Assembly: GCF_051486985.1 (NCBI RefSeq)
Contig: NZ_JAHVDV010000040.1
Location: 2,241-38,537, forward strand
Direction: 5' to 3'
Length of the DNA stretch: 36,297 nt
Origin: Yokenella regensburgei
GTDB taxonomy: Bacteria; Pseudomonadota; Gammaproteobacteria; Enterobacterales; Enterobacteriaceae
Shown: positions 1 to 36,117 of the stretch, piece after piece
Position numbering within the stretch: position 1 is the stretch's first letter
Layout of the letters: each line of letters starts with the position of its first letter
The notes under the pieces: model-generated
Database searches by the model: none
Told to the model about the DNA's origin: nothing
What the model saw: only the letters and a program-made list of their open reading frames with translations
Program-made: the position numbers and the translations under genes

Positions 1-693
<693 letters not shown>

Positions 694-716
694 ACAACGC
701 CGAAGCTGTTTTGGCG

Positions 717-820
717 TGAGGTGGTCCCACCTGACCCCATGCCGAACTCAGAAGTGAAACGCCGTAGCGCCGATGGTAGTGTGGGGTCTCCCCATGCGAG
801 AGTAGGGAACTGCCAGGCAT
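717..820 (+). rRNA. rrf: 5S ribosomal RNA, 5'-truncated copy (about 100 of 120 nt present; first ~20 nt and most of the 23S-5S spacer absent)
   Basis: Positions 721-820 match E. coli 5S from ggtggtcccacctgacc.. through the 3' end ..gggaactgccaggcat. The expected 5' segment tgcctggcggcagtagcgcg is replaced by a 23S-distal spacer fragment (..gctgttttggcg) joined through tgag. Confidence 0.8.
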
Positions 821-2677: not shown

Positions 2678-4279
2678 ATGACACAACAGGCAACGACAAC
2701 GGACGAACTGACGTTTATTAAACCTTCTGGCGAGCGGGAAGAGCATATTCTTACGCCCGGTGCGGTAGAGTTTTTGACTGAACTGGTTACGCGCTTTACG
2801 CCACAACGTAATAAACTGCTGGCGGCACGCATCCAGCAACAACAGGCTATTGACGAAGGGACGCTTCCTGATTTTATTTCGGAAACGGATTCCATTAGAA
2901 ATAGTGAATGGAAGATCCGTGGGATTCCGGCTGACCTCATGGATCGCCGCGTAGAGATCACCGGGCCGGTAGAGCGCAAGATGGTGATCAACGCGCTCAA
3001 CGCCAATGTGAAGGTCTTCATGGCGGATTTTGAAGATTCCCTCTCACCCGACTGGGACAAAGTTATTGAGGGACAGGTTAACCTGCGCGATGCAGTGAAC
3101 GGCACCATCAGTTACACCAACGATGCCGGGAAAATTTACCAACTTAAGCCCAATCCGGCGGTACTGATTTGCCGTGTGCGCGGTCTGCATCTGCCAGAAA
3201 AACATGTTACCTGGCGGGGTGAAGCCATTCCCGGTAGCCTGTTTGATTTCGCGCTCTACTTCTTCCACAACTATAAAGCGCTCCTGGCTAAAGGCAGCGG
3301 CCCCTATTTCTATCTGCCAAAAACCCAGGCCTGGCAGGAAGCCGCATGGTGGAGTGAGGTTTTCAGCTATAGCGAAGATCGCTTTAATCTGCCTCGCGGC
3401 ACCATCAAAGCCACCCTGTTGATTGAAACGCTGCCTGCGGTTTTCCAGATGGATGAGATCCTGCACGCGTTGCGCGACCATATTGTGGGGCTTAACTGTG
3501 GTCGCTGGGACTATATTTTCAGCTATATCAAGACACTGAAAAACCACCCGGACCGGGTGTTGCCTGACCGTCAGGTCGTTACTATGGACAAACCTTTCCT
3601 CAATGCCTATTCGCGTCTGTTGATCAAAACCTGCCACAAACGCGGCGCGTTTGCGATGGGCGGTATGGCGGCCTTCATTCCGAGTAAAGATACTGAGCGC
3701 AACAATCAGGTGCTGGAGAAAGTTAAAGCGGACAAAGCGCTGGAAGCCAACAATGGGCATGACGGAACCTGGATTGCGCACCCTGGTCTTGCCGACACGG
3801 CGATGGACGTCTTTAGCAAAGCGTTGGGTGAGAATCCTAATCAGCTCTCTGTCACCCGGGAAGAAGATGCACCTATTACCGCAGAACAACTGTTAGCGCC
3901 AGCTGACGGTGAACGAACTGAAAAGGGGATGCGCGCCAATATCCGCGTGGCGGTGCAGTACATCGAAGCCTGGATCTCCGGCAATGGGTGTGTGCCGATC
4001 TATGGTCTGATGGAGGACGCGGCCACGGCTGAAATCTCCCGCACCTCCATCTGGCAGTGGATCCACCACGAGAAAACACTCAGTAACGGTAAGCCTGTGA
4101 CCAAAGCCCTGTTCCGCCAGATGCTTGCTGAAGAGATGCGGGTCATTCAGGACGAGCTGGGGGAGCACCGCTTCAGCAGCGGTCGTTTCAACGATGCCGC
4201 GCGGTTGATGGAACAAATCACCACTTCTGATGAGCTGATTGATTTCCTGACCTTGCCGGGCTACCGCCTGCTCGCATAA
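2678..4279 (+). CDS. aceB: malate synthase A
   Basis: 533 aa starting MTQQATTTDELTFIKP, colinear with E. coli AceB (MTEQATTTDELAF..). The upstream in-frame extension from 2588 is rejected. Confidence 0.97.
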   Translation: MTQQATTTDELTFIKPSGEREEHILTPGAVEFLTELVTRFTPQRNKLLAARIQQQQAIDEGTLPDFISETDSIRNSEWKIRGIPADLMDRRVEITGPVERKMVINALNANVKVFMADFEDSLSPDWDKVIEGQVNLRDAVNGTISYTNDAGKIYQLKPNPAVLICRVRGLHLPEKHVTWRGEAIPGSLFDFALYFFHNYKALLAKGSGPYFYLPKTQAWQEAAWWSEVFSYSEDRFNLPRGTIKATLLIETLPAVFQMDEILHALRDHIVGLNCGRWDYIFSYIKTLKNHPDRVLPDRQVVTMDKPFLNAYSRLLIKTCHKRGAFAMGGMAAFIPSKDTERNNQVLEKVKADKALEANNGHDGTWIAHPGLADTAMDVFSKALGENPNQLSVTREEDAPITAEQLLAPADGERTEKGMRANIRVAVQYIEAWISGNGCVPIYGLMEDAATAEISRTSIWQWIHHEKTLSNGKPVTKALFRQMLAEEMRVIQDELGEHRFSSGRFNDAARLMEQITTSDELIDFLTLPGYRLLA

Positions 4280-4447: not shown

Positions 4448-5752
4448 ATGAAAACCCGTACCCAACAAATCGAAGAATTACAAAAAGAATGGACTCACTC
4501 TCGCTGGGAAGGCATTACACGTCCTTACAGCGCGGAAGAGGTGGTGAAATTACGTGGCTCGGTGAACCCGGAATATACGCTGGCGCAGCTGGGTGCCGCG
4601 AAAATGTGGCGTTTATTGCATGGCGAATCGAAGAAAGGCTATGTCAACAGTCTGGGCGCGCTGACCGGTGGGCAGGCACTGCAGCAGGCGAAGGCGGGCG
4701 TGGAAGCCATTTATTTGTCCGGCTGGCAGGTGGCCGCAGATGCGAACCTCGCATCCAGCATGTATCCGGATCAATCGCTCTATCCGGCTAACTCCGTGCC
4801 CTCCGTGGTGGATCGGATCAACAACACCTTCCGCCGCGCGGATCAGATCCAGTGGTCATCCGGTATTGAACCCAACGATCCGCGCTACGTGGACTACTTC
4901 CTGCCGATCGTCGCCGATGCGGAAGCCGGATTTGGCGGTGTACTGAATGCCTTCGAGCTGATGAAATCGATGATTGAAGCCGGTGCAGCGGCGGTTCACT
5001 TCGAAGATCAACTCGCCTCGGTGAAAAAATGCGGACATATGGGCGGCAAGGTACTGGTTCCGACGCAGGAAGCAGTGCAGAAACTGGTGGCCGCACGCCT
5101 GGCGGCAGATGTACTGGGGGTGCCAACGCTGGTGATTGCGCGTACCGATGCTGACGCGGCGGATTTGATCACTTCTGATTGCGACCCTTACGACAGCGCA
5201 TTCATTACCGGTGAGCGCACCAGCGAAGGGTTTTACCGTACTCACGCCGGTATCGAACAGGCTATCAGCCGTGGCCTGGCGTATGCGCCTTATGCTGATT
5301 TAGTGTGGTGTGAAACCTCCACACCGGACCTGGCGCTGGCGAAGCGCTTCGCCGATGCGATTCATGCGAAGTTCCCAGGGAAATTGCTGGCCTACAACTG
5401 TTCTCCCTCATTTAACTGGCAGAAAAATCTGGACGATCAAACCATCGCCAGTTTCCAGCAACAGTTGTCAGACATGGGCTACAAGTATCAGTTTATTACG
5501 CTCGCGGGTATTCACAGCATGTGGTTCAACATGTTCGATCTGGCGCGTTCTTATGCGCAGGGCGAAGGAATGCGTCACTACGTCGAAAAAGTGCAGCAAC
5601 CGGAATTTGCCGCCGCCAAAGAGGGTTATACCTTTGTGTCCCATCAGCAGGAGGTGGGGACGGGTTATTTCGATAAGGTCACCACTATCATCCAGGGTGG
5701 CGTTTCGTCGGTGACGGCGCTGACCGGGTCAACGGAAGAGTCGCAGTTTTAA
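4448..5752 (+). CDS. aceA: isocitrate lyase
   Basis: 434 aa starting [16 protein letters not shown], as E. coli AceA. GGAG lies 6 nt upstream of this ATG. The ATG at 4433 is rejected. Confidence 0.97.
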
Positions 5753-6276
5753 TTTTCCCCTCACCCTAACCCTCTCCCCATTGGGGAGAGGGAACTGGCC
5801 GTGCTCGCCTTTTTTTGTGGGGATTCCCCAACCCTTAGGGAGAGAGGATGACAGGGTTGGGTGCTCAGGATTCGTGCCGTTTTTTTCTCCCTCTCCCCAT
5901 TGGGGAGCGGGAACTGGCCGTGCTCGCTTTTTTGGTGGGGATTTCCCAATCCGCAGGGAGAGAGGATGACAGGGGTGGGTGGTCAGGATTCGTGCCGTTT
6001 TTTTCTCCCTCTCCCCATTGGGGAGCGGGAACTGGCCGTGCTCGCTTTTTTGGTGGGGATTTCCCAACCCTCAGGGAGAGAGGATGACAGGGGTGGGTGG
6101 TCAGGATTCGTGCCGTTTTTTTTCTCCCTCTCCCCATTGGGGAGAGGGAACTGGCCGTGCTCGCCTTTTTTTGTGGGGATTCCCCAACCCTCAGGGAGAG
6201 AGGATGACAGGGTTGGGGGCTCAGGATTCGTGCCGTTTTTTTCTCCCTCGCCCCTCCGGGGAGAGGGCCGGGGTGA
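5751..6276. repeat. tandem array (about 4.5 copies, period 118-119 bp) of a palindromic hairpin plus U-tract unit filling the aceA-aceK spacer
   Basis: The motif cctctccccattggggag(a/c)gggaa recurs at 5761, 5880, 5998 and 6117. The array is bounded by cccctcaccctaaccctctcccc (5751) and its inverted partner ggggagagggccggggtgagggg (6249-6271). Each unit carries hairpins followed by T7-8 runs. Confidence 0.9.
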
Positions 6277-6285
6277 GGGGACGCT

Positions 6286-8007
6286 ATGTCGCGTGGGCTG
6301 GAACTACTGATTGCACAAACCATTCTGCAGGGCTTCGACGCCCAGTATGGTCGTTTTCTGGAGGTTACCTCCGGGGCGCAGCAGCGCTTTGAACAAGCCG
6401 ACTGGCATGCGGTACAGCAGGCGATGAAACAACGCATCCATCTCTACGATCACCATGTGGGGCTGGTGGTGGAACAACTGCGCTGTATTACTGATAACCC
6501 GCGCCCTGACCCCGATTTTCTCCTTCAGGTTAAAGCGCACTATACCCAGCTTCTTCCGGACTATCCGCGCTATGAAATCGCCGAGAGTTTTTTTAACTCC
6601 GTATATTGCCGCCTGTTCGATCACCATGCGCTGACGCCCGAGCGGCTATTCATATTCAGTTCTCAGCCAGAACGCCATTTTCGTGAGCATGCCCGTCCGC
6701 TGGCAAAAGATTTTTACCCTGAAGCTTGTTGGGAAACGCTGCTGACGCGGGTGCTCAGTGATTTACCATTACGCCTGCCCTGGCAGAACCTGACGCGGGA
6801 CGTGGGCTACATCATTGCCCATCTGGTGGAAACCTTCGGTGTTGAGGTGCTACGCAAGGCGCATCTGCATATCGCCAATGAACTCTTTTATCGTAATAAA
6901 GCGGCCTGGCTGGTAGGCAAACTGGTTACGCCTGCGGGGACGCTGCCTTTTTTGTTGCCGATTCACCGTAGCGATGATGGCGAGCTTTTTGTGGATACCT
7001 GTCTGACGGCCATCGCTGAAGCCAGCATCGTATTTGGCTTCGCCCGCTCCTACTTTATGGTTTATGCACCACAGCCTGCCGCGCTGGTGGAGTGGCTGCG
7101 GGAAATCCTGCCCGGCAAAACTACCGCCGAGTTGTATATGGCAATTGGCTGCCAGAAGCATGGCAAAACCGAAAGCTACCGTGAATATCTGAGCTACCTT
7201 GCGGGCAGTGATGAGCAGTTTATCGAAGCGCCGGGCATACGCGGCATGGTGATGCTGGTGTTCACTCTGCCGGGCTTTGATCGGGTGTTTAAAATCATTA
7301 AGGACCAGTTCCCGCCGCAAAAAGAGATGAGTGCCGCCCATGTACGTGCCTGCTATCAGCTTGTCAAAGAGCACGATCGCGTAGGGCGCATGGCGGACAC
7401 CCAGGAGTTCGAAAACTTCGTGCTGGAGAAACGCCGGATAGCACCAGAATTAATGGCATTGCTATTTAAAGAGGCATCACAAAAGATCACCGACCTCGGC
7501 GATCGCATTGTCATCAGCCATCTTTATATCGAGCGGCGGATGGTGCCGCTCAATCTGTGGTTTGAGCGGGTAAGCGGTCAGCAGCTGCGCGATGCCGTTG
7601 AGGAGTATGGTAACGCGATTCGCCAGCTTGCGGCCGCGAATATTTTTCCCGGCGATATGTTGTTTAAAAACTTCGGCGTCACCCGCCACGGGCGTGTGGT
7701 GTTCTACGACTATGACGAAATTTGCTACATGACCGAGGTGAATTTCCGGGATATTCCTCCGCCGCGCTACCCGGAAGACGAGATGAGTGCGGAACCCTGG
7801 TACAGCGTCGCGCCGGGAGATGTGTTCCCGGAGGAATTTCGCCACTGGCTCTGCGCAGACCCGCAAATCGGACCTTTATTTGAGGAGATGCATGCGGACC
7901 TGCTGCGGGCAGATTACTGGCGCGGGTTACAAACACGTATTAAAAACGGCCACGTGGAGGATGTTTACGCCTACCGCCGGCGCCAGCGGTTTTGTATTAG
8001 AAGGTAA
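6286..8007 (+). CDS. aceK: isocitrate dehydrogenase kinase/phosphatase
   Basis: 573 aa, [47 protein letters not shown].., near-identical to the E. coli AceK N-terminus. Confidence 0.97.
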
Positions 8008-8012
8008 AAGCA

Positions 8013-8037
8013 AAACGGCAACATTGTTGCCGTTTTT
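8013..8037 (+). terminator. aceK rho-independent terminator
   Basis: aaacggcaac-att-gttgccgttt followed by tt. Confidence 0.75.
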
Positions 8038-8170
8038 AGGGTTTGTACCTTCTCACTGTAACTGTTTTATTCACATTGCGCTGTGTTATCGCTGTAAAGC
8101 GTAATGTTACTGAGGCCTCCTCTCCCGGTGGGCTGAGGAATCCTCATAAAAAATGCGAGCACAGACGGTT

Positions 8171-8210
8171 CCCTCTCCTCTTAGGGGAGAGGGCCAGGAT
8201 AAGGGCATCA
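8171..8210. repeat. palindromic intergenic repeat (ccctctcctcttaggggagagggccaggataagggc) between convergent aceK and iclR
   Basis: Same motif family as the flanks of the aceA-aceK array and the arrays at 35347 and 35950. Confidence 0.7.
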
Positions 8211-8213
8211 GCC

Positions 8214-9041
8214 TTAGCGCATCCCGCCCCAGGCCAGCGTCACCTCTTTCGCCCCTTTGATCGCCATCGCCCCCAGCTCCGTCACCCGGTCATCCGTGAT
8301 GCGTGAAACCGGACCCGAAATAGAGATTGCCGCGAACGGCACGCCATGTTCATCATAAATACAGGCGGCAACGCAGCGCAGACCCAGTGCATGCTCTTCG
8401 TCATCAAAGGAGTAGCCGCGCTTGCGCGTCTGGGCAAGATCTTCTTTAAGATGTATCGGCGAGACCAGCGTCGCATGGGTATAAGCATGCAGCCCTTTAC
8501 GATGCAGCAAGCCCGTGACCTGCTCCTCGCTTAACTGAGACAGAAAAGCTTTCCCCGCCCCTGAAGCGTGCATCGGCAGCTTGCCGCCAATCGGTGCGGA
8601 CATACGCATAAGCTGGGTGCACTGCACCTGGTCGATAATAATGGCCTGATGATCGCTCTGGTCGAGTACCGCCAGGTTGACCGTTTCGCCGGAGTTCTCC
8701 ATCAGGGTGCGCAAAATCGGATGCACAATCGCCATCAGATTGCGGCTTTGCAGGAAGCTGCTGCCGACGATAAAGGCATGCGCCCCTACGGACCAGTGGC
8801 CCAGTTCGCCCACCTGACGCACAAACCCCAGTTGTTGCATGGTGGTCAGTAAGCGGTGGGTGGTGGAGTTGGGCAAGCCAGCCTGCTGTGCCAGTTCGGT
8901 TAACGCCACGCTGCCGTGGGATTCAGCAATGGACTCCAGCAGCTTAAGCCCGCGCGTTAACGACTGGACCTGACCTGTGGGTTGCGTGGCAGCGGCAGTA
9001 GCGGGTTTTCTGCCGCGTTTAGCGGGTACATTGGCAACCAT
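8214..9041 (-). CDS. iclR: glyoxylate-bypass transcriptional repressor IclR
   Basis: 275 aa, MVANVPAKRGRKPATAAATQPTGQVQSLTRGLKLLE.., colinear with E. coli IclR. Confidence 0.97.
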   Translation of the reverse strand: MVANVPAKRGRKPATAAATQPTGQVQSLTRGLKLLESIAESHGSVALTELAQQAGLPNSTTHRLLTTMQQLGFVRQVGELGHWSVGAHAFIVGSSFLQSRNLMAIVHPILRTLMENSGETVNLAVLDQSDHQAIIIDQVQCTQLMRMSAPIGGKLPMHASGAGKAFLSQLSEEQVTGLLHRKGLHAYTHATLVSPIHLKEDLAQTRKRGYSFDDEEHALGLRCVAACIYDEHGVPFAAISISGPVSRITDDRVTELGAMAIKGAKEVTLAWGGMR

Positions 9042-28834: not shown

Positions 28835-29090
28835 TCGATTATTCAGCCATGGCACAAGGGAAGAGCGAAAGGGGTAGGCGCAGCAAACTACGATTACACC
28901 CAGAAGTGCTCCACCACTTGTGAAACGCCCGACTGCGAACGTTTCTGGTGACAACTCAGGGGATTCAGCCCCTGTAGCCGATGGTGATTGCTGCCGTGCA
29001 ATCCACCACCTCGGCGGTGCTCCCCCTCACGTATCGTCTCCGGATGGGCTCCTCGAATACGGTTACCTGGGCAACGCTCCTCTTCTGGCT
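28835..29090 (-). ncRNA. lysine riboswitch (lysC leader, L-box)
   Basis: The minus-strand leader matches the E. coli lysC leader as I recall it: ..gccagaagaggagcgttgccc.. at the 5' end, ..catcggctacaggggctgaatcccctgagttgtcacc.. centrally, and ..ctcttcccttgtgccatggctgaa..cccctgacacgagg before the ATG. Confidence 0.85.
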
Positions 29091-29392
29091 ATTACCTTCG
29101 CCTTTCACACTCTCTGTAGCGAGAAATGCTCTGGTAATACACAAACTCGCCTGTAGGCGGGTAGCGCATATAGAAATAAAGGCTCGCGGCATCCCTGTCA
29201 ATGTTGTGATTATGCGGATTTTTCATGCAGAGGAATCGATTAGAAAAAGGGCTTATGTTGGGCTAATTTATTGCTTTATTTCGCCCGTTTTGCCGCGGCG
29301 TCCGGGAGTGGAAAACAAAAACCATCACAATTTTTGTTCGCAGGCGCTACAATCGACCGCAGTCACAATTCTCAAATCAGAAGAGTATTGCT

Positions 29393-31039: not shown

Positions 31040-31085
31040 TTTTTTTTGCATCCTTAGCGATGCGCCGGATATGCTATAAAAAAAT

Positions 31086-31109
31086 GCCGACATTGCGTCG
31101 GCTTTTTTT
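31086..31109 (+). terminator. pgi rho-independent terminator
   Basis: gccgac-attgc-gtcggc followed by ttttttt. Confidence 0.8.
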
Positions 31110-31397
31110 ATCGGATAAATCTTCTTCCCACTATTAATACCTAATTCCGCGCTCTGAGGTTATTCTGAAAAGCAAGAATAACCGTTTAATGTCCAGGCGT
31201 TATTTTCAGATGTTACCTATACTTCCCAACTGGGTGAGTAATTTTAACAATATGAAATATAAAGGTTTTAAATTAAATATATAATTTTTATATATCTCTT
31301 TTATCCAATTTTCTTAAAACTTCCCGCTACGTTTCCCATTCGATTAATAGCCTGCTTTAGTTGTGTATACTCGTACTCGCCTGATTATTTCAGGCAC

Positions 31398-32500: not shown

Positions 32501-33237
32501 AGATACGAATTTATGCAGCGCTGATCATGACCCTTTGCGCTCCCCTGGCGCTGGCCGCGGGTACCATTGAGGTACACACCGCAGGCGACACTAAACCCAG
32601 AACCCTGACCGACGCCGCCCATCTGATAGATGTGGTCGGCCAGCCGCGACTGGCGCAAAGCTGGTGGCCTGGCGCCGTCATTAGCGAGCGTCAGGCTACG
32701 GCTGTAGCAACCGAACGCCAGCAGGCCCTGCTGGGTCGGTTACGCAGCCTGGCGGCGGAAGAGAGCGGTGATGATGCAGCGGCGGTGAATGCGCTGAGTC
32801 ATCAGGTTGCGGCGCTGAAAATCACAGGTCGCCAGCAGGTTAACCTCGACCCGGACGTCGTTCGGGTAAGAGCTGGCGCAAACCCGCCTTTAGAAGGGCA
32901 TTACAGCCTGTGGGTCGGCCCCCGTCCTGACACCATTACCATTTTTGGCCTCGTCAGTAGCCCAGGAAAAAAAGCGTTCACGCCGGGACGTGACGTCGTG
33001 AGTTATCTTGACGAGATGCATTTGCTGAGCGGCGCGGATAAAAACGATGCCTGGTTGATTTACCCCAACGGCCGCACCAAAAAAGTACCGGTGGCCTACT
33101 GGAACCGACGCCACGTCGAGCCAATGCCCGGCAGCACCATTTTTGTCGGCTTTTCCCCGGCGTTATGGGGCGACCGTTATGAAACGCTGAACGCGGACAT
33201 TCTTCATTCTCTGACGCACAGGATACCGGAACAATAA
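32497..33237 (+). CDS. yjbG: YjbG (exopolysaccharide-associated periplasmic protein)
   Basis: 246 aa with a signal peptide [22 protein letters not shown]. Overlaps the yjbF stop (ATGA). Colinear with E. coli YjbG. Confidence 0.9.
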
Positions 33238-35333
33238 TGAAAAAATCCTTTGTCATCAGTGTGCTGGCGCTGGGGATTAGCGCCGCCTGCCACGCAGAAA
33301 GTTACCCGGCACCCATTGGCCCGTCGCAGTCTGACTTCGGTGGGGTGGGTCTGCTGCAAACCCCCACGGCGCGTATGGCCCGGGAAGGGGAGATCAGTCT
33401 CAACTATCGCGATAACGATCAGTATCGCTATTACTCCGGCTCAATACAGCTTTTCCCGTGGCTTGAAACCACGCTGCGTTACACCGATGTGCGTACCCGT
33501 CGCTACAGCAGTGTGGATGCCTTCTCTGGCGACCAGTCCTATAAAGATAAGGCCTTCGATCTGAAATTACGCCTGTGGGAAGAGGGGTACTGGATGCCGC
33601 AGGTTGCCGTAGGCGCACGTGATATCGGCGGAACGGGGCTGTTTGATGGCGAATATGTGGTGGCAAACAAGGCCTGGGGGCCGTTCGACTTCTCCCTTGG
33701 CCTGGGATGGGGCTATCTCGGTACGGCCGGGAATATCAAAAACCCCCTCTGTTCGTATGAAGAGAAATATTGCTACCGCGATAACAGTTATAACCAGGCA
33801 GGCTCGGTGGATGCCAGCCAGATGTTCCACGGTCCCGCGTCGCTGTTTGGCGGGGTAGAGTACCAGACACCCTGGCAGCCCCTGCGGCTTAAGCTGGAAT
33901 ATGAAGGCAACAACTATCAGCAGGACTTTGCCGGTAGCCTGCCGCAAAAGAGCAAGTTTAACGTCGGTGCCATTTACCGGGTGGCGGATTGGGCTGACGT
34001 CAATCTCAGCTATGAACGTGGTAACACCTGGATGTTTGGCTTCACGTTACGCAATAACTTCAATGACCTGCGTCCCGCCTACAATGATAACGCCCGACCG
34101 CAGTACCGCCCGCAACCGCAGGATGCCATCATTCAGCACTCTGTTGTCGCCAATCAGCTGACCTTGCTGAAATACAATGCGGGTCTGGCCGATCCGAAAA
34201 TTCAGGTGAAAGGCGATACGTTGTACGTGACGGGCGAGCAGGTAAAATACCGCAACTCGCAGGAAGGTATCGAACGCGCTAATCGCATCGTGATGAACGA
34301 CCTGCCGGAAGGTATTCGCACCATTCGGGTGACGGAAAACCGCCTTAACCTGCCGCAGGTGACCACCGAGACGGACGTTGCCAGTCTGCAGCGCCATCTG
34401 GAGGGGGAGCCGCTGGGGCAGGAGACGACGCTGGTGCAAAAACGCGTCACCCCGATAGTGCCGGAATCTACCGAGCAGGGCTGGTATATCGAAAAGTCGA
34501 GCTTTGATTTCCATATCGACCCGGTGCTCAATCAGTCGATTGGTGGCCCGGAAGGGTTCTATATGTATCAGCTTGGGGTGATGGCGACCGCCGACTGGTG
34601 GCTCACCGATCACCTGCTGACGACCGGCAGTCTGTTCGCTAACCTTGATAACAACTACGACAAATTCAACTACACCAACCCACCGAAGGATTCACAACTG
34701 CCGCGTGTGCGTACCCGCGTACGTGAATATGTGCAGAACGATGTGTATGTGAATAACCTGCAGGCCAACTACTTCCAGTATCTGGATAATAATTTCTATG
34801 GCCAGGTGTACGCCGGCTATCTGGAAACCATGTACGGCGGCGCGGGGGCTGAGGTGCTCTGGCGTCCGGTGGACAGCAACTGGGCGTTTGGTGTGGATGC
34901 CAACTACGTGAAGCAGCGTGACTGGCGCAGCGCGCAGGATCTCATGAAATTCACCGATTACAGCGTGAAGACCGGGCACTTAACGGCCTACTGGACGCCA
35001 CCGTTTGCCCAGGATGTGCTGATCAAAGCCAGCGTTGGGCAGTATCTGGCGGGTGATAAGGGCGGCACACTGGAGGTGGCGAAACACTTCGACAGCGGTG
35101 TGGTGGTGGGAGCCTATGCCACTATCACCAACGTTTCGCCGGATGAGTATGGTGAAGGGGACTTTACCAAAGGCGTATATGTCTCCATTCCGTTGGATCT
35201 CTTCTCCACCGGCGCGACCCGCAGTCGTGCGGCCGTTGGCTGGACGCCACTGACGCGTGATGGCGGGCAGCAGCTGGGACGTAAATTCGATCTTTATGGG
35301 ATTACCAGCGATAAGAGTATGAATTTCAGGTAA
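33237..35333 (+). CDS. yjbH: outer-membrane beta-barrel lipoprotein-like YjbH
   Basis: 698 aa with a signal peptide [20 protein letters not shown]. Overlaps the yjbG stop by 1 nt (TAATG). Same length and sequence as E. coli YjbH. Confidence 0.92.
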
Positions 35334-35346
35334 TTTGGCGTTCGCG

Positions 35347-35566
35347 TCCCCTCACCCTGGCCCTCTCCCCAGAGAGACGAGGGGAGCGATGGAGCCGCTT
35401 TCCCCCCTCACCCTGGCCCTCTTTCCAAAGGGGCGAGGGGATCGATCGAGCCGCTTTCCCCCTCACCCTGGCCCTCTCCCCAAAGGGGCGAGGGGAGCGA
35501 TCGAGCCGCTTTCCCCCTCACCCTGGCCCTCTCCCCAAAGAGACGAGGGGAGCGATGGAGCCTGCT
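35347..35566. repeat. 4 tandem copies of a ~56-bp unit (ccctcaccctggccctctcccc-aaag-gggcgaggggagcgatSgagccgctttcc)
   Basis: Seen directly. Period 55-57 bp, immediately downstream of yjbH. The array ends ..gagcctgctaaaaggtgtggacttttctccctct. Confidence 0.9.
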
Positions 35567-35689
35567 AAAAGGTGTGGACTTTTCTCCCTCTTTCTTTTAA
35601 TTGAAGTGCCCTCACTAATATTACGTTTTACAGCGATAACATTGCGTCATGGGAATAAAACAGTCACCGCGATGACAGGGTCCGGCTGA

Positions 35690-35900
35690 AAATCGACGAC
35701 GCGTATCCGCAAGGCCGGGGCGCCGCGCAGGGATGCGCGGCGAGGGCGGCTTTACAGGGAGGTTTCCTCCGCCCGTCCCCGACAAGCCTGAAGGATTAAG
35801 CGTCGTGGACCGCGAAGCGGCGATTTTCGTGGCCGGGAGCCCGGGTCGCCAGGGTGGTGGCGGTGAACCACCCTGGCACGTTCACGGGTTCTGGCGTGAC
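35690..35900. other. GC-rich, highly structured non-coding segment between the two repeat clusters (candidate structured RNA or mobile remnant)
   Basis: Strong local hairpins: cgccgcgca-ggga-tgcgcggcg (35728-35749), gggagg-ttt-cctcc (35758-35771), and ccagggtggt-ggcggtgaa-ccaccctgg (35849-35877). No convincing ORF. Confidence 0.35.
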
Positions 35901-35949
35901 AGAGAAGCAAGAAACATAAGGTGAACGGAATGACCACAAGAGCCGCATG

Positions 35950-36117
35950 TTTCCCCTCACCCTGGCCCTCTCCCCAAAGGGGCGAGGGGAGCGATGGAGC
36001 CGCTTTTCCCCTCACCCTGACCCTCTCCCCAGAGAGGCGAGGGGAGCGATGGAGCCGCTTTTCCCCTCACCCTGACCCTCTCCCCAGAGAGACGAGGGAA
36101 GCGATCGAGCCTGCTAA
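35950..36117. repeat. 3 tandem copies of the same ~56-bp unit (second cluster, direct orientation)
   Basis: Seen directly. Ends ..gagcctgctaaaaagcgtggttttttctccctctcc, parallel to the end of the first cluster. Confidence 0.9.

Follow-up and report, generated by a model that had tools for sequence, protein, structure and literature searches.

Amplified BoxC/PIT/TM repeats in the aceA–aceK spacer of a Yokenella-like enterobacterium and their predicted bearing on the aceK ribosome-binding site

The 533-bp spacer between aceA and aceK in the window (the whole 36,297-nucleotide stretch of DNA that was analysed) is, judged from its sequence, a tandemly amplified cluster of BoxC/PIT/TM elements (intrastrand triplex motifs), a known unstable intergenic repeat. 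Taken jointly, this identity and the origin by amplification are very likely. With less assurance, we also favour as probable on balance the whole explanation, in which the amplified BoxC cluster occludes the ribosome-binding site of aceK. The spacer would be a clear natural example of BoxC/triplex-motif instability leading to large tandem amplification inside an operon. The features are collected in Table 1.

Architecture and identity of the spacer

Tandem Repeats Finder placed an array at 5770–6267 with a period of 118, 4.2 copies, 93% matches and a score of 847. Four in-register copies were also returned by the repeat finder, together with an inverted bracket whose 38-nt arms (5756–5793 and 6244–6281) are 82% complementary. 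The spacer length of about 530 bp, the tandem array and the inverted pair around it, all given in the first-pass annotation, were thus recovered, while the copy number given there (4.5) was replaced by four units of 119, 118, 119 and 119 bp plus one additional hairpin. The palindrome cores (CCCTCTCCCC) begin at 5770, 5889, 6007 and 6126, and the terminal core at 6245; allowing one mismatch at most, the window has 26 occurrences of CCCTCTCCCC, where 2.3 would be expected. The units differ from each other by 2–9 substitutions in an A-B-B-A pattern, and uncompensated substitutions in the B-type units (2 and 3) break pairs in both hairpins. The hairpin 'ggggattcccc' proposed earlier is not possible, because its loop would be only 1 nt, and units 2 and 3 have the sequence in a degenerate form, GGGGATTTCCC. 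Each unit has three G3 runs with long loops (a possible G-quadruplex). Coding sequence was rejected as a candidate reading of the array: none of the open reading frames that cross it (5861–6310 (+), 5979–6392 (+), 5865–6437 (-) and 5729–6067 (-)) matched Pfam, and a unit does not divide into whole codons.

Table 1. Features in and around the aceA–aceK spacer (window coordinates).
Feature	Coordinates	Strand	Basis
aceA (isocitrate lyase), 434 aa	4448..5752	+	NCBIfam NF011645, 795 bits; translation
aceA stop codon TAA	5750-5752	+	
aceA–aceK spacer, 533 bp, repeat modules throughout	5753..6285	+	
BoxC/PIT/TM motif, complete, type A; minus-strand reading CCCTCTCCCC-AAT-GGGGAGAGGG-TTA-GGGTGAGGGG	5757..5792	-	zero-mismatch match to GGGAGAGGGNNNGGGTGAGGG; type definitions PMC4666352
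Type A third block, plus-strand reading CCCCTCACCC, begins 4 nt past aceA stop	5757-5766		
Unit 1 (A-type)	5770..5888	+	
Unit 1 hairpin core	5770-5792	+	
Unit 1 module F, AACTGGCCGTGCTCGCC+T7	5793-5816	+	
Unit 1 TIR-R-like module	5817-5847	+	
Unit 1 body remnant GATGACAGGGT...	5847-5879	+	
Unit 1 T7+CT	5880-5888	+	
Unit 2 (B-type); GGGGAGCGGG disrupts one palindrome pair	5889..6006	+	
Unit 3 (B-type)	6007..6125	+	
Unit 4 (A-type), 95% identity to unit 1	6126..6244	+	
BoxC/PIT/TM motif, complete, type B; CCCTCGCCCC-TCC-GGGGAGAGGG-CCG-GGGTGAGGGG	6245..6280	+	zero-mismatch match; loop 2 is CCG
aceK Shine-Dalgarno GAGGGG, within type B third block; GAGG-to-ATG 7 nt	6275..6280	+	
aceK (isocitrate dehydrogenase kinase/phosphatase), 573 aa	6286..8007	+	NF002804, 918 bits
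Canonical bidirectional aceK terminator	8012-8036		consensus terminator scan
Eight T-runs	5810-5816, 5880-5886, 5928-5933, 5998-6004, 6046-6051, 6116-6123, 6166-6172, 6236-6242	+	
Single diverged dispersed copy of the unit's first ~75–87 nt (degenerate BoxC + F + TIR-R), aceK–iclR spacer	8120..8205	-	blastn 75–80% identity; alignment

The BoxC/TM motif is defined by the blocks CCCTCNCCC-loop-GGGAGAGGG-loop-GGGTGAGGG, that is, a hairpin plus a G-rich third strand. Holder et al. observed the triplex in vitro, though not in vivo (PMC4666352). Only the two end elements, 5757–5792 (-) and 6245–6280 (+), have all three blocks, with zero mismatches. No third block accompanies the four internal cores, which are therefore BoxC hairpin cores rather than complete motifs. 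Loop 2 defines the type of a TM (TTA for A, CCG for B), and the five inverted TM pairs of E. coli always consist of one type A and one type B (PMC4666352). The same rule holds here, with TTA as the second loop of the left element and CCG as that of the right one. E. coli TM_ECO no. 1 reads CCCTCTCCCTGTGGGAGAGGGCCGGGGTGAGGGC (PMC4666352), and inverted BoxC pairs were seen directly in alx-sstT and hrpB-mrcB of E. coli. The motif of purine plus third block occurs 10 times in the window, always between genes, against 0 expected; places matching only the array ends number about 14 per E. coli genome. BoxC was sought in K-12 downstream of fabI, said to be the site of its first description, and was not found there. 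BoxC or PIT elements of E. coli and Enterobacter were reportedly treated by Bergler in 1992, Bachellier in 1999 and Hoyne in 2000.

The likeness to the BoxC/PIT/TM_ECO elements of E. coli and Enterobacter covers the blocks (CCCTCTCCC-loop-GGGAGAGGG-TTA or CCG-GGGTGAGGG) as well as the strictly intergenic, multi-copy occurrence, the inverted A–B pairing and the hypervariable loci. There are also differences. The third blocks lie outward here (A then B), whereas they lie inward (B then A) in two E. coli pairs; the interval is amplified here to four 118–119-bp units that keep the hairpin core only; and the type B G-block provides the aceK Shine-Dalgarno. It had been suggested earlier that one palindromic element was amplified internally. 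The amplification stands, and the element is more precisely a pair of BoxC/PIT/TM elements, A and B in inverted orientation, with cores that act as 23-bp direct repeats.

Enterobacter sp. 638 has the same hairpin in its CCCTCTCCCxx(x)GGGAGAGGG palindromes, of which there are about 100 copies, often two or three together at the 3' end of a gene; they were described only as presumed terminator hairpins, and neither a regular 118-bp tandem unit nor linker modules were reported for them (PMC2869309). REP/BIME elements share with the array its position between aceA and aceK (three PUs in E. coli K-12, two in the closest relatives) and its character of clustered palindromic intergenic repeats with mosaic linkers and a variable unit number. 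The array differs from them in lacking similarity to the PU consensus (GCCGGATGCGGCGT.. / GCCTGATGCGACGC..), of which the spacer of the window holds no copy, and in having direct rather than alternating units.

Linker modules, relatives and origin of the array

Each unit consists of the BoxC Watson-Crick hairpin core and a 95-bp linker. On sequence comparison the linker is a mosaic of modules (F, terminal-inverted-repeat-like and body remnant) from a composite repeat with dispersed copies in the source genome and among related Enterobacteriaceae, and in part also in E. coli. This composite is about 560 bp long with terminal inverted repeats of about 30 bp, and it has short and long forms in several genera. 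In the window it is placed at 35563–35939, a stretch with E. coli homologues. Of 27 positions compared between the reverse-complemented TIR-R-like module and the composite's left end in the relative L032, 22 agree (0 of 500 shuffles reach the score); GATGACAGGGT agrees with the beginning of the composite body at 11 of 11 (0 of 500 shuffles). F and the TIR-R-like module were also seen beside BoxC in Enterobacteriaceae MAGs (L002, L013, L016 and L020), in L040 and on plasmids, where a search with the linker matched its F and TIR part only. In the genome collection the F-module pattern gave only single dispersed copies in Enterobacteriaceae MAGs and chance hits in high-GC genomes. The metagenome scan gave one true match (L040) and four chance matches in a coding region for the F module, and 0 matches for the second half of the unit. 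The composite core is absent upstream of tauA in K-12, and Rfam at gathering and permissive thresholds returned noise only for the array and for the 35.2–36.3 kb region. With linker modules from such a composite, the array may be likened to MITE-like mosaic repeats (ERIC/IRU, Correia/NEMIS, RUP), but the composite has no identified transposase partner or target-site duplication, and the array unit is a fragment of it, holding one TIR-like module only where the composite has TIR-like ends.

In E. coli K-12 the aceA–aceK spacer is 182 bp long and contains three REP/PU, so that the length below 200 bp given in the first-pass annotation was right and the single REP was not. Relatives with 94–95% AceK identity have a spacer of about 100 bp with a REP pair, and PUs occupy the same spacer in L030–L032. 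Phytobacter-type relatives carry an unexpanded BoxC pair in a 101-bp spacer of invariant length (10 contigs), with the layout seen in the window: A hairpin, T-run linker, B hairpin and a Shine-Dalgarno in the G-block. A MAG (L037) has a 42-bp spacer with one BoxC-like element. Spacers thus range from 42 to 533 bp among relatives with an intact aceK, and the expansion in the window exceeds E. coli and every relative compared. Scans of 185,579 species genomes and of JGI metagenomes turned up no such array. Two draft genomes (MGK9175626.1 and MGK9229552.1) encode an AceK identical to that of the window. A stable palindrome lies directly 3' of aceA in all lineages examined, and it comes from unrelated repeat families. 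The comparison shows the junction as an apparent hot spot, colonised repeatedly by unrelated palindromic repeats (REP/BIME or BoxC).

The array is probably a neutral, lineage-specific amplification within a known repeat type. As the hairpin core reads as a palindrome, the inverted A and B motifs bring with them a 23-bp direct repeat, one core lying about 118 bp from the other. Through replication slippage or unequal recombination at these two cores, 'core + linker' would have grown from one unit to four. We infer that such an origin fits both the hypervariability documented for BoxC/TM loci among E. coli strains (PMC4666352) and the two further tandem arrays, built of BoxC-containing 55-bp units, in the 36-kb window (three arrays in total). 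Since the spacers of the relatives nearest in AceK identity contain REPs instead of BoxC, the path from a Phytobacter-like spacer would not be a simple one. As for the number of copies, it most likely arose as a neutral by-product.

T-runs and competing explanations

The T-runs noticed in the first-pass annotation are present (eight, T6–T8), but the tie to hairpins claimed for them was lost, as none adjoins a strong stem. The 10-bp GC hairpin of each unit ends 17 nt before the first T-run; in per-T-run folds, the T-runs abut only stems of 3 bp or of irregular shape (-5 to -11 kcal/mol), and the first T-run has a predicted partner in the GGGAGAGAGG downstream of it. We read the T-runs as parts of linker modules, none of them a canonical intrinsic-terminator tail. 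An intrinsic terminator was taken as a GC-rich stem of at least 5 bp with a loop of 3–8 nt and a U-tract within 0–2 nt. With permissive criteria, 0 sites were found on either strand of 5751–6285 in a scan that detects the aceK terminator (8012–8036). The array is like tandem intrinsic terminators or attenuators in that an operon-internal spacer has hairpins and T-runs on its sense strand; with no T-run directly joined to a stable stem, it falls outside the structural definition of a terminator. A rut site was taken as about 80 nt of C-rich, G-poor and weakly structured RNA, whereas the array has a GC skew of +0.1 to +0.29 throughout and an MFE of -272 kcal/mol (z = -3.8). Its RNA, with G>C, G/U-rich and heavily structured, is therefore a poor Rho loading site. 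A consensus scan found no promoter-like sites in the array or between it and aceK. The array may still cause weak cumulative pausing or attenuation.

Each unit had been likened earlier to an intrinsic terminator or attenuator module. On this model eight serial T-runs would cut aceK read-through, and the copy number would be an evolvable rheostat. Eight T6–T8 runs and five strong hairpins on the sense strand suit such a role, as does the want of promoter-like sites before aceK. AceK is needed at about 1/300 of AceA (PMC5435950), another attenuator would be useful in a lineage where the aceK-internal terminator of E. coli is degraded, and transcription termination has been put forward, as a speculation, for the CCCTCTCCC..GGGAGAGGG palindromes found at the 3' ends of genes in the Enterobacter sp. 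638 genome (PMC2869309). We nevertheless find this reading improbable in view of the empty scan, the 17-nt gap, the weak abutting stems, the predicted pairing of the T-run with GGGAGAGAGG, the structured, G>C RNA and the report that elements of the family act neither as promoters nor as terminators (PMC4666352, citing the Maher laboratory). The homologous unexpanded spacer moreover has a constant length in 10 contigs, and Shine-Dalgarno occlusion is predicted regardless of unit number (see below). A 'hairpin plus T-run somewhere nearby' should not be read as a terminator. Considerably less probable again is a platform for RNA-binding proteins, on which GGA motifs and U-tracts of the aceBAK mRNA would act like CsrB and bind CsrA or Hfq, either titrating or recruiting them. 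CsrA affects acetate and glyoxylate-shunt metabolism. The GGA motifs of each unit (GAGGAUGA and CAGGAUU) are about 27 nt apart, giving two AGGA motifs per unit against roughly 0.3 expected from base composition, and the aceK-int RNA of E. coli is Hfq-dependent (PMC7815308). However, this enrichment is one unit counted four times, the GGA motifs are inconsistently placed in predicted loops, Rfam gives no CsrB/CsrC or other family hit, and conservation outside the source genome was not found (185,579 species genomes, JGI metagenomes).

A stronger competitor, though we think it somewhat unlikely, is a neutral or selfish expansion from BoxC instability with no measurable effect on aceA or aceK expression. 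Such a view agrees with the hypervariable BoxC/TM loci of E. coli, in whose positions or regulation Holder et al. saw no consistent pattern (PMC4666352). It also agrees with the three separate BoxC-unit arrays within 36 kb, the uncompensated hairpin-breaking substitutions in units 2 and 3, and the 42- to 533-bp spacers of relatives with an intact aceK. The aceK Shine-Dalgarno is, however, physically part of the type B motif, and therefore the element cannot be irrelevant to aceK translation initiation; the palindromes after aceA in all lineages examined also suggest that the site favours such structures. A mis-expanded repeat in the assembly is scarcely credible. Tandem repeats are error-prone in assembly, and the sample is one lineage, but the identical 533-bp spacer is present in the window and in the 5,015,652-bp contig CP096393.1 (L033), which differ by a 185-bp indel elsewhere, near the 5S gene. 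The A-B-B-A differences at 2–9 positions, by which the units can be distinguished, are likewise unlike a collapse or over-expansion of identical repeats, so the artefact raised as a possibility in the first-pass annotation is not an obvious one.

Spacer RNA folding and aceK translation initiation

The preferred reading, occlusion of the aceK ribosome-binding site by the amplified cluster, draws on folding and on what is generally known of palindromes between cistrons. With its five GC-rich 10-bp hairpins, together with an outer clamp, the spacer of the aceBAK transcript would be long, stably folded and untranslated. In the clamp CCCCUCACCC, 4 nt past the aceA stop, would pair with GGGGUGAGGGG, which contains the aceK Shine-Dalgarno; this would hide the ribosome-binding site and keep AceK synthesis far below that of AceA. 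The hairpins would in addition protect the 3' ends of aceBA decay intermediates, a role classically assigned to REP/BIME elements. REP elements protect the 3' end of the upstream cistron, decouple the downstream one and interfere with ribosomes close to a stop codon. Their RNA-level effects were reportedly described by Newbury and Higgins in 1987, Stern in 1988, Espeli in 2001 and Liang, Rudd and Deutscher in 2015, and the same effects are expected of the array.

In the folds the closing helix of the window has a pairing probability of about 1.0. The aceK Shine-Dalgarno is predicted to be fully paired with 5757–5766, with a mean unpaired probability of 0.01 compared with 0.28 in E. coli, 0.11 in L030 and 0.27 in L032, and pairing of stop-proximal sequence with the Shine-Dalgarno is also predicted in L056 (0.09) and L037 (0.02–0.12). 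For all BoxC-type spacers the folds predict this pairing between the C-rich block following the aceA stop and an aceK Shine-Dalgarno within the BoxC G-block. The predicted occlusion is identical with 0, 1, 2, 3 or 4 units, and therefore no copy-number rheostat is predicted at equilibrium. Together with the unexpanded spacer fixed at 101 bp in ten Phytobacter-type contigs, this speaks against the rheostat proposed earlier at the level of folding and relatives. The Shine-Dalgarno remains paired after in silico mutation of the left arm, so that the clamp partner is not unique. A single unit folds no better than shuffled sequence (z = -1.46), and the hairpin-breaking uncompensated changes in the B-type units argue against selection on the internal structures. 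The functional reading is one of equilibrium RNA folding only, and the long-range helix of about 500 nt may not form co-transcriptionally. That Shine-Dalgarno occlusion and decoupling are the main functional effect of the spacer is accordingly a plausible but tentative suggestion.

AceB, AceA and AceK are made at about 0.3:1:0.003 in E. coli (PMC5435950), where premature termination occurs inside aceK (PMC7815308). In the window, as also in L030 and L032, this internal terminator has a degraded hairpin, which makes the spacer and the ribosome-binding site obvious places for a downshift in this clade. An aceK ribosome-binding site built from a repeat, with a predicted clamp to sequence near the aceA stop, offers a testable hypothesis for the extreme AceA:AceK ratio in a lineage that lost the aceK-internal terminator of E. 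coli.

A more speculative and quite unlikely extension is that the outward-facing BoxC A/B pair acts as a translational-coupling clamp, aceK being translated only when the ribosome terminating on aceA melts it. The C-rich block 4 nt past the aceA stop may then pair with an aceK Shine-Dalgarno 42 to 530 nt downstream, and the amplified units in the clamp loop may tune kinetics only. If this were true, a 'junk' repeat family would supply both the ribosome-binding site and the anti-Shine-Dalgarno partner of a gene kept about 300-fold below its upstream neighbour. Folding predicts a pairing of stop-proximal sequence with the Shine-Dalgarno in the window, in the Phytobacter type and in L037, three lineages with differing sequences and spacer lengths.

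The expanded aceA-aceK spacer

The aceA-aceK spacer of the window is expanded, as the first-pass annotation had noted, to 533 bp compared with 182 bp in Escherichia coli K-12. The annotation correctly placed the E. coli spacer below 200 bp, but it contains three REP/PU sequences rather than a single REP. Tandem Repeats Finder detected a repeat with period 118 at 5770–6267 (4.2 copies, 93% matches, score 847), and a repeat finder gave four in-register copies within an inverted bracket with 38-nt arms (5756–5793 and 6244–6281). The palindrome cores (CCCTCTCCCC-N3-GGGGAGAGGG) begin at 5770, 5889, 6007, 6126, and 6245, so that the array consists of four units (119, 118, 119, and 119 bp) and a terminal hairpin. 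The units are of two sequence types (1 and 4 versus 2 and 3). The array is genuine and far above chance expectation. The 'ggggattcccc' motif, previously taken for a hairpin, is unable to fold as such, and in units 2 and 3 its sequence is degenerate.

The window's AceK has 100% identity with a protein named as Yokenella regensburgei. The spacer of CP096393.1 (a 5.0-Mb contig found via MetA; locus L033) is base-for-base the same as the window's. Over 9.4 kb the two sequences differ only by a 185-bp indel where 23S and 5S meet (window ~720; L033 6048–6234): the 23S-5S spacer is missing from the window, together with ~15 nt at the start of the 5S rRNA. This is probably an assembly or rRNA-operon difference, and because of it the two are probably separate assemblies. 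Since these agree and the substitutions are unit-specific, an assembly artefact, which the annotation had considered, is unlikely.

Features of the window and of the array ends
Feature	Position	Strand	Remarks
rrl/rrf	1–818		
metA			in window
aceB			in window
metH			in window
aceA	4448–5752		
Left end element	5757–5792	minus	CCCTCTCCCC-AAT-GGGGAGAGGG-TTA-GGGTGAGGGG
Right end element	6245–6280	plus	CCCTCGCCCC-TCC-GGGGAGAGGG-CCG-GGGTGAGGGG
aceK	6286–8007		
iclR	8214–9041	minus	
Lysine riboswitch	28896–29092	minus	Rfam, 89.6 bits; ordinary
STnc430 (enterobacterial sRNA)	31073–31226	minus	Rfam, 55.1 bits; ordinary
698-aa ORF	33237–35333		
Direct tandem array	35348–35562		55-bp unit, 3.9 copies
Composite element copy	35563–35939		~380 bp
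Direct tandem array	35940–36111		55-bp unit, 3.1 copies

Across the loci compared, the junction between aceA and aceK stands out as a hot spot. A REP pair within about 100 bp is present in L030–L032, the closest relatives by AceK (94–95% identity). The Phytobacter/'Kluyvera intermedia' group (AceK 89–90%) has an unamplified 101-bp spacer with a window-like layout: a C-rich third block and hairpin right after the stop, a short T-run linker, a second hairpin, and a G-block providing the Shine-Dalgarno. Its length is constant in ten contigs, which comprise three sequence variants. In the MAG L037 (AceK 87%) the 42-bp spacer is one degenerate BoxC-like element. Since no other tandem array of this unit was found among 185,579 species (one genome each) or in two metagenome scans, the expansion seems specific to the window's lineage as far as the data go.

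BoxC elements and linker modules

Both end elements match GGGAGAGGGNNNGGGTGAGGG without mismatch, and the window holds 10 motifs of this type versus 0 expected. By sequence the array ends belong to the family named BoxC, later PIT elements, and then TM_ECO 'intrastrand triplex motifs' (example sequence CCCTCTCCCTGTGGGAGAGGGCCGGGGTGAGGGC), in which a TTA loop defines type A and a CCG loop type B (Holder et al., 2015, PMC4666352). MG1655 has 23 TM copies, all intergenic (23/23), with five inverted pairs each made up of one type A and one type B, and across E. coli strains TM loci vary far more than control intergenic sites do (Holder et al., 2015, PMC4666352). Two E. coli pairs were read directly, in alx-sstT and hrpB-mrcB, and ~14 places per E. 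coli genome match fragments of the array ends. Enterobacter sp. 638 has ~100 CCCTCTCCCxx(x)GGGAGAGGG hairpins, which often stand in twos or threes at the 3' ends of genes (PMC2869309). The array is an inverted A/B BoxC pair whose interior holds only the BoxC hairpin core, four times, each with a 95-bp linker, which bears out the bracket and the internal amplification proposed earlier. The feature is a tandem amplification inside an inverted BoxC/PIT/TM pair, specific to this lineage in the data covered.

Dispersed modules make up the linker in mosaic fashion. One of them, module F (AACTGNCCGTGCTCGCNT6-7), is followed by a GTGGGGATTCCYCA..GGGAGAGG module, and both also lie beside BoxC at window 8120–8205 (minus strand), in four Enterobacteriaceae MAGs (L002, L013, L016, and L020), in a rhizosphere metagenome contig (L040), and in a few enterobacterial plasmids. 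Longer copies align into a composite element of ~560 bp, with the order left end, variable promoter-like segment, ~250-nt conserved core, segment ending AAGGTGAACGGAATGACC..GCATGTT, BoxC type A, F, and right end. The reverse complement of the unit's right-end module (TIR-R) matches the composite left end at 22/27 positions, equalled by 0/500 shuffles, so this module behaves like a terminal inverted repeat. In the unit, GATGACAGGGT... agrees with the beginning of the composite body (11/11) and with the short core-less form in L002 (19/23). Each unit is accordingly made of hairpin core, F, TIR-R, body remnant, and T-run, the T-runs of the array being parts of linker modules. The '...GTTTTCT-CCCTCTCCC' junction of the array also adjoins E. 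coli BoxC elements.

Terminal inverted repeats of ~30 bp delimit the composite element, which contains a promoter-like TTTACA..N17..AATAAA segment and also exists in the short core-less form (L002). Besides the window copy, copies occur in L032 (4770–5101), L040 (minus strand, ~3230–3700), and E. coli L039 (1400–1900). The GC-rich core of the window copy (~250 nt) has 80% identity to unannotated intergenic E. coli copies, found at a median of 3 places per genome (maximum 8). Folding four copies to a consensus gave 78 pairs, with compensatory changes in 7/78, and the window copy had no match in Rfam. The element could represent a structured RNA not described so far, or the cargo of a MITE.

Past the aceK terminator, the minus strand of the aceK-iclR spacer (8031–8225) has a degenerate BoxC (GGGAGAGGGCCAGGATAAGGG), F, a TIR-R-like module, and a truncated promoter-like segment; 8058–8115 has 84% identity to 35610–35667. 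No arpA is present here between aceK and iclR. In L032 the aceK-iclR spacer carries a complete composite element, oriented the other way.

Termination and the origin of the amplification

The array had first been read as resembling stacked intrinsic terminator or attenuator modules. A permissive consensus scan found no site in it on either strand while detecting the true aceK terminator. In folds of the 45 nt leading up to each T-run (eight in all), the strong hairpin (about -20 kcal/mol) ended 17 nt upstream of the T-run, and the stems abutting the T-runs were only 3-bp or irregular. In the unit fold the first T-run is paired with GGGAGAGAGG. The sense RNA (G>C, T>>A) is heavily structured and would therefore be a poor Rho substrate. 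Earlier experiments found neither promoter nor terminator activity for TM elements, the lack of terminator activity being in E. coli (summarised in Holder et al., 2015, PMC4666352). On these grounds we reject stacked terminators as the main mechanism; weak cumulative pausing is still conceivable.

Because of the palindromic BoxC core, the two cores in an inverted A/B pair are at the same time direct repeats (19/23 identical, ~118 bp apart), ideally suited to slippage or unequal exchange. Such events between cores would account for the exact n x (core + linker) + core make-up of the array.

Two direct tandem arrays of a 55-bp unit (CCCCTCACCCTGGCCCTCTCCCCAAAGGGGCGAGGGGAGCGATCGAGCCGCTTTC), with a BoxC type motif in every unit, flank the composite core, the first beginning 15 nt past the stop of the 698-aa ORF. 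Amplification of BoxC units thus recurs within this genome rather than being particular to aceK, which fits the instability reported for the family. Complete type B motifs (CCCTCTCCCCGTGGGAGAGGGC[CT]GGGGTGAGGGC) lie directly downstream of aceK in L030/L031 (4717–4760) and L037 (4260–4391), and in L037 the aceK terminator and BoxC block appear to be tandemly duplicated, a further sign of local instability around the family.

The aceK ribosome-binding site

The aceK Shine-Dalgarno GAGGGG (6275–6280) sits within the third block of the type B motif. A partition function of the whole spacer pairs it, with probability about 1, with CCCCUCACCC (5757–5766), which begins 4 nt past the aceA stop. The mean unpaired probability at positions -15 to -5 is 0.01 in the window, 0.28 in E. 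coli, 0.11 in L030, and 0.27 in L032, and pairing of the stop-proximal sequence with the Shine-Dalgarno is also predicted for the Phytobacter-type spacer (0.09) and L037 (0.02–0.12). Because the prediction for the window is the same with 0, 1, 2, 3, or 4 units, occlusion would be due to the BoxC pair rather than to its amplification, and the copy-number rheostat suggested earlier is not predicted at equilibrium. That the outward-facing pair serves as a translational-coupling clamp from the aceA stop to the aceK Shine-Dalgarno is a model we regard as rather unlikely. In units 2 and 3, some changes break pairs without compensation; this and the non-significant single-unit fold argue that the internal units are free of structural selection.

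Roles of REP/BIME sequences in 3'-end protection and cistron uncoupling are established by the work of Higgins, Hofnung, and Deutscher. By analogy with REP/BIME at the same position, we infer that, besides occlusion, the array hairpins may shield aceBA 3' ends and uncouple aceK.

In E. coli, AceB:AceA:AceK is about 0.3:1:0.003, with premature termination within aceK at aceK-int (PMC5435950, PMC7815308, PMC10687069). E. coli and L037 retain an intact aceK-int hairpin and U-tract, which are degraded in the window, L030, and L032. The E. coli site is CCGCTCG..CGAGCGG+T5; at window ~6604–6650 it reads CCATGCG..CGAGCGG CTATTCATATTC, with both stem and U-tract lost. The downshift in this clade would therefore have to depend to a greater extent on the spacer and on the ribosome-binding site.
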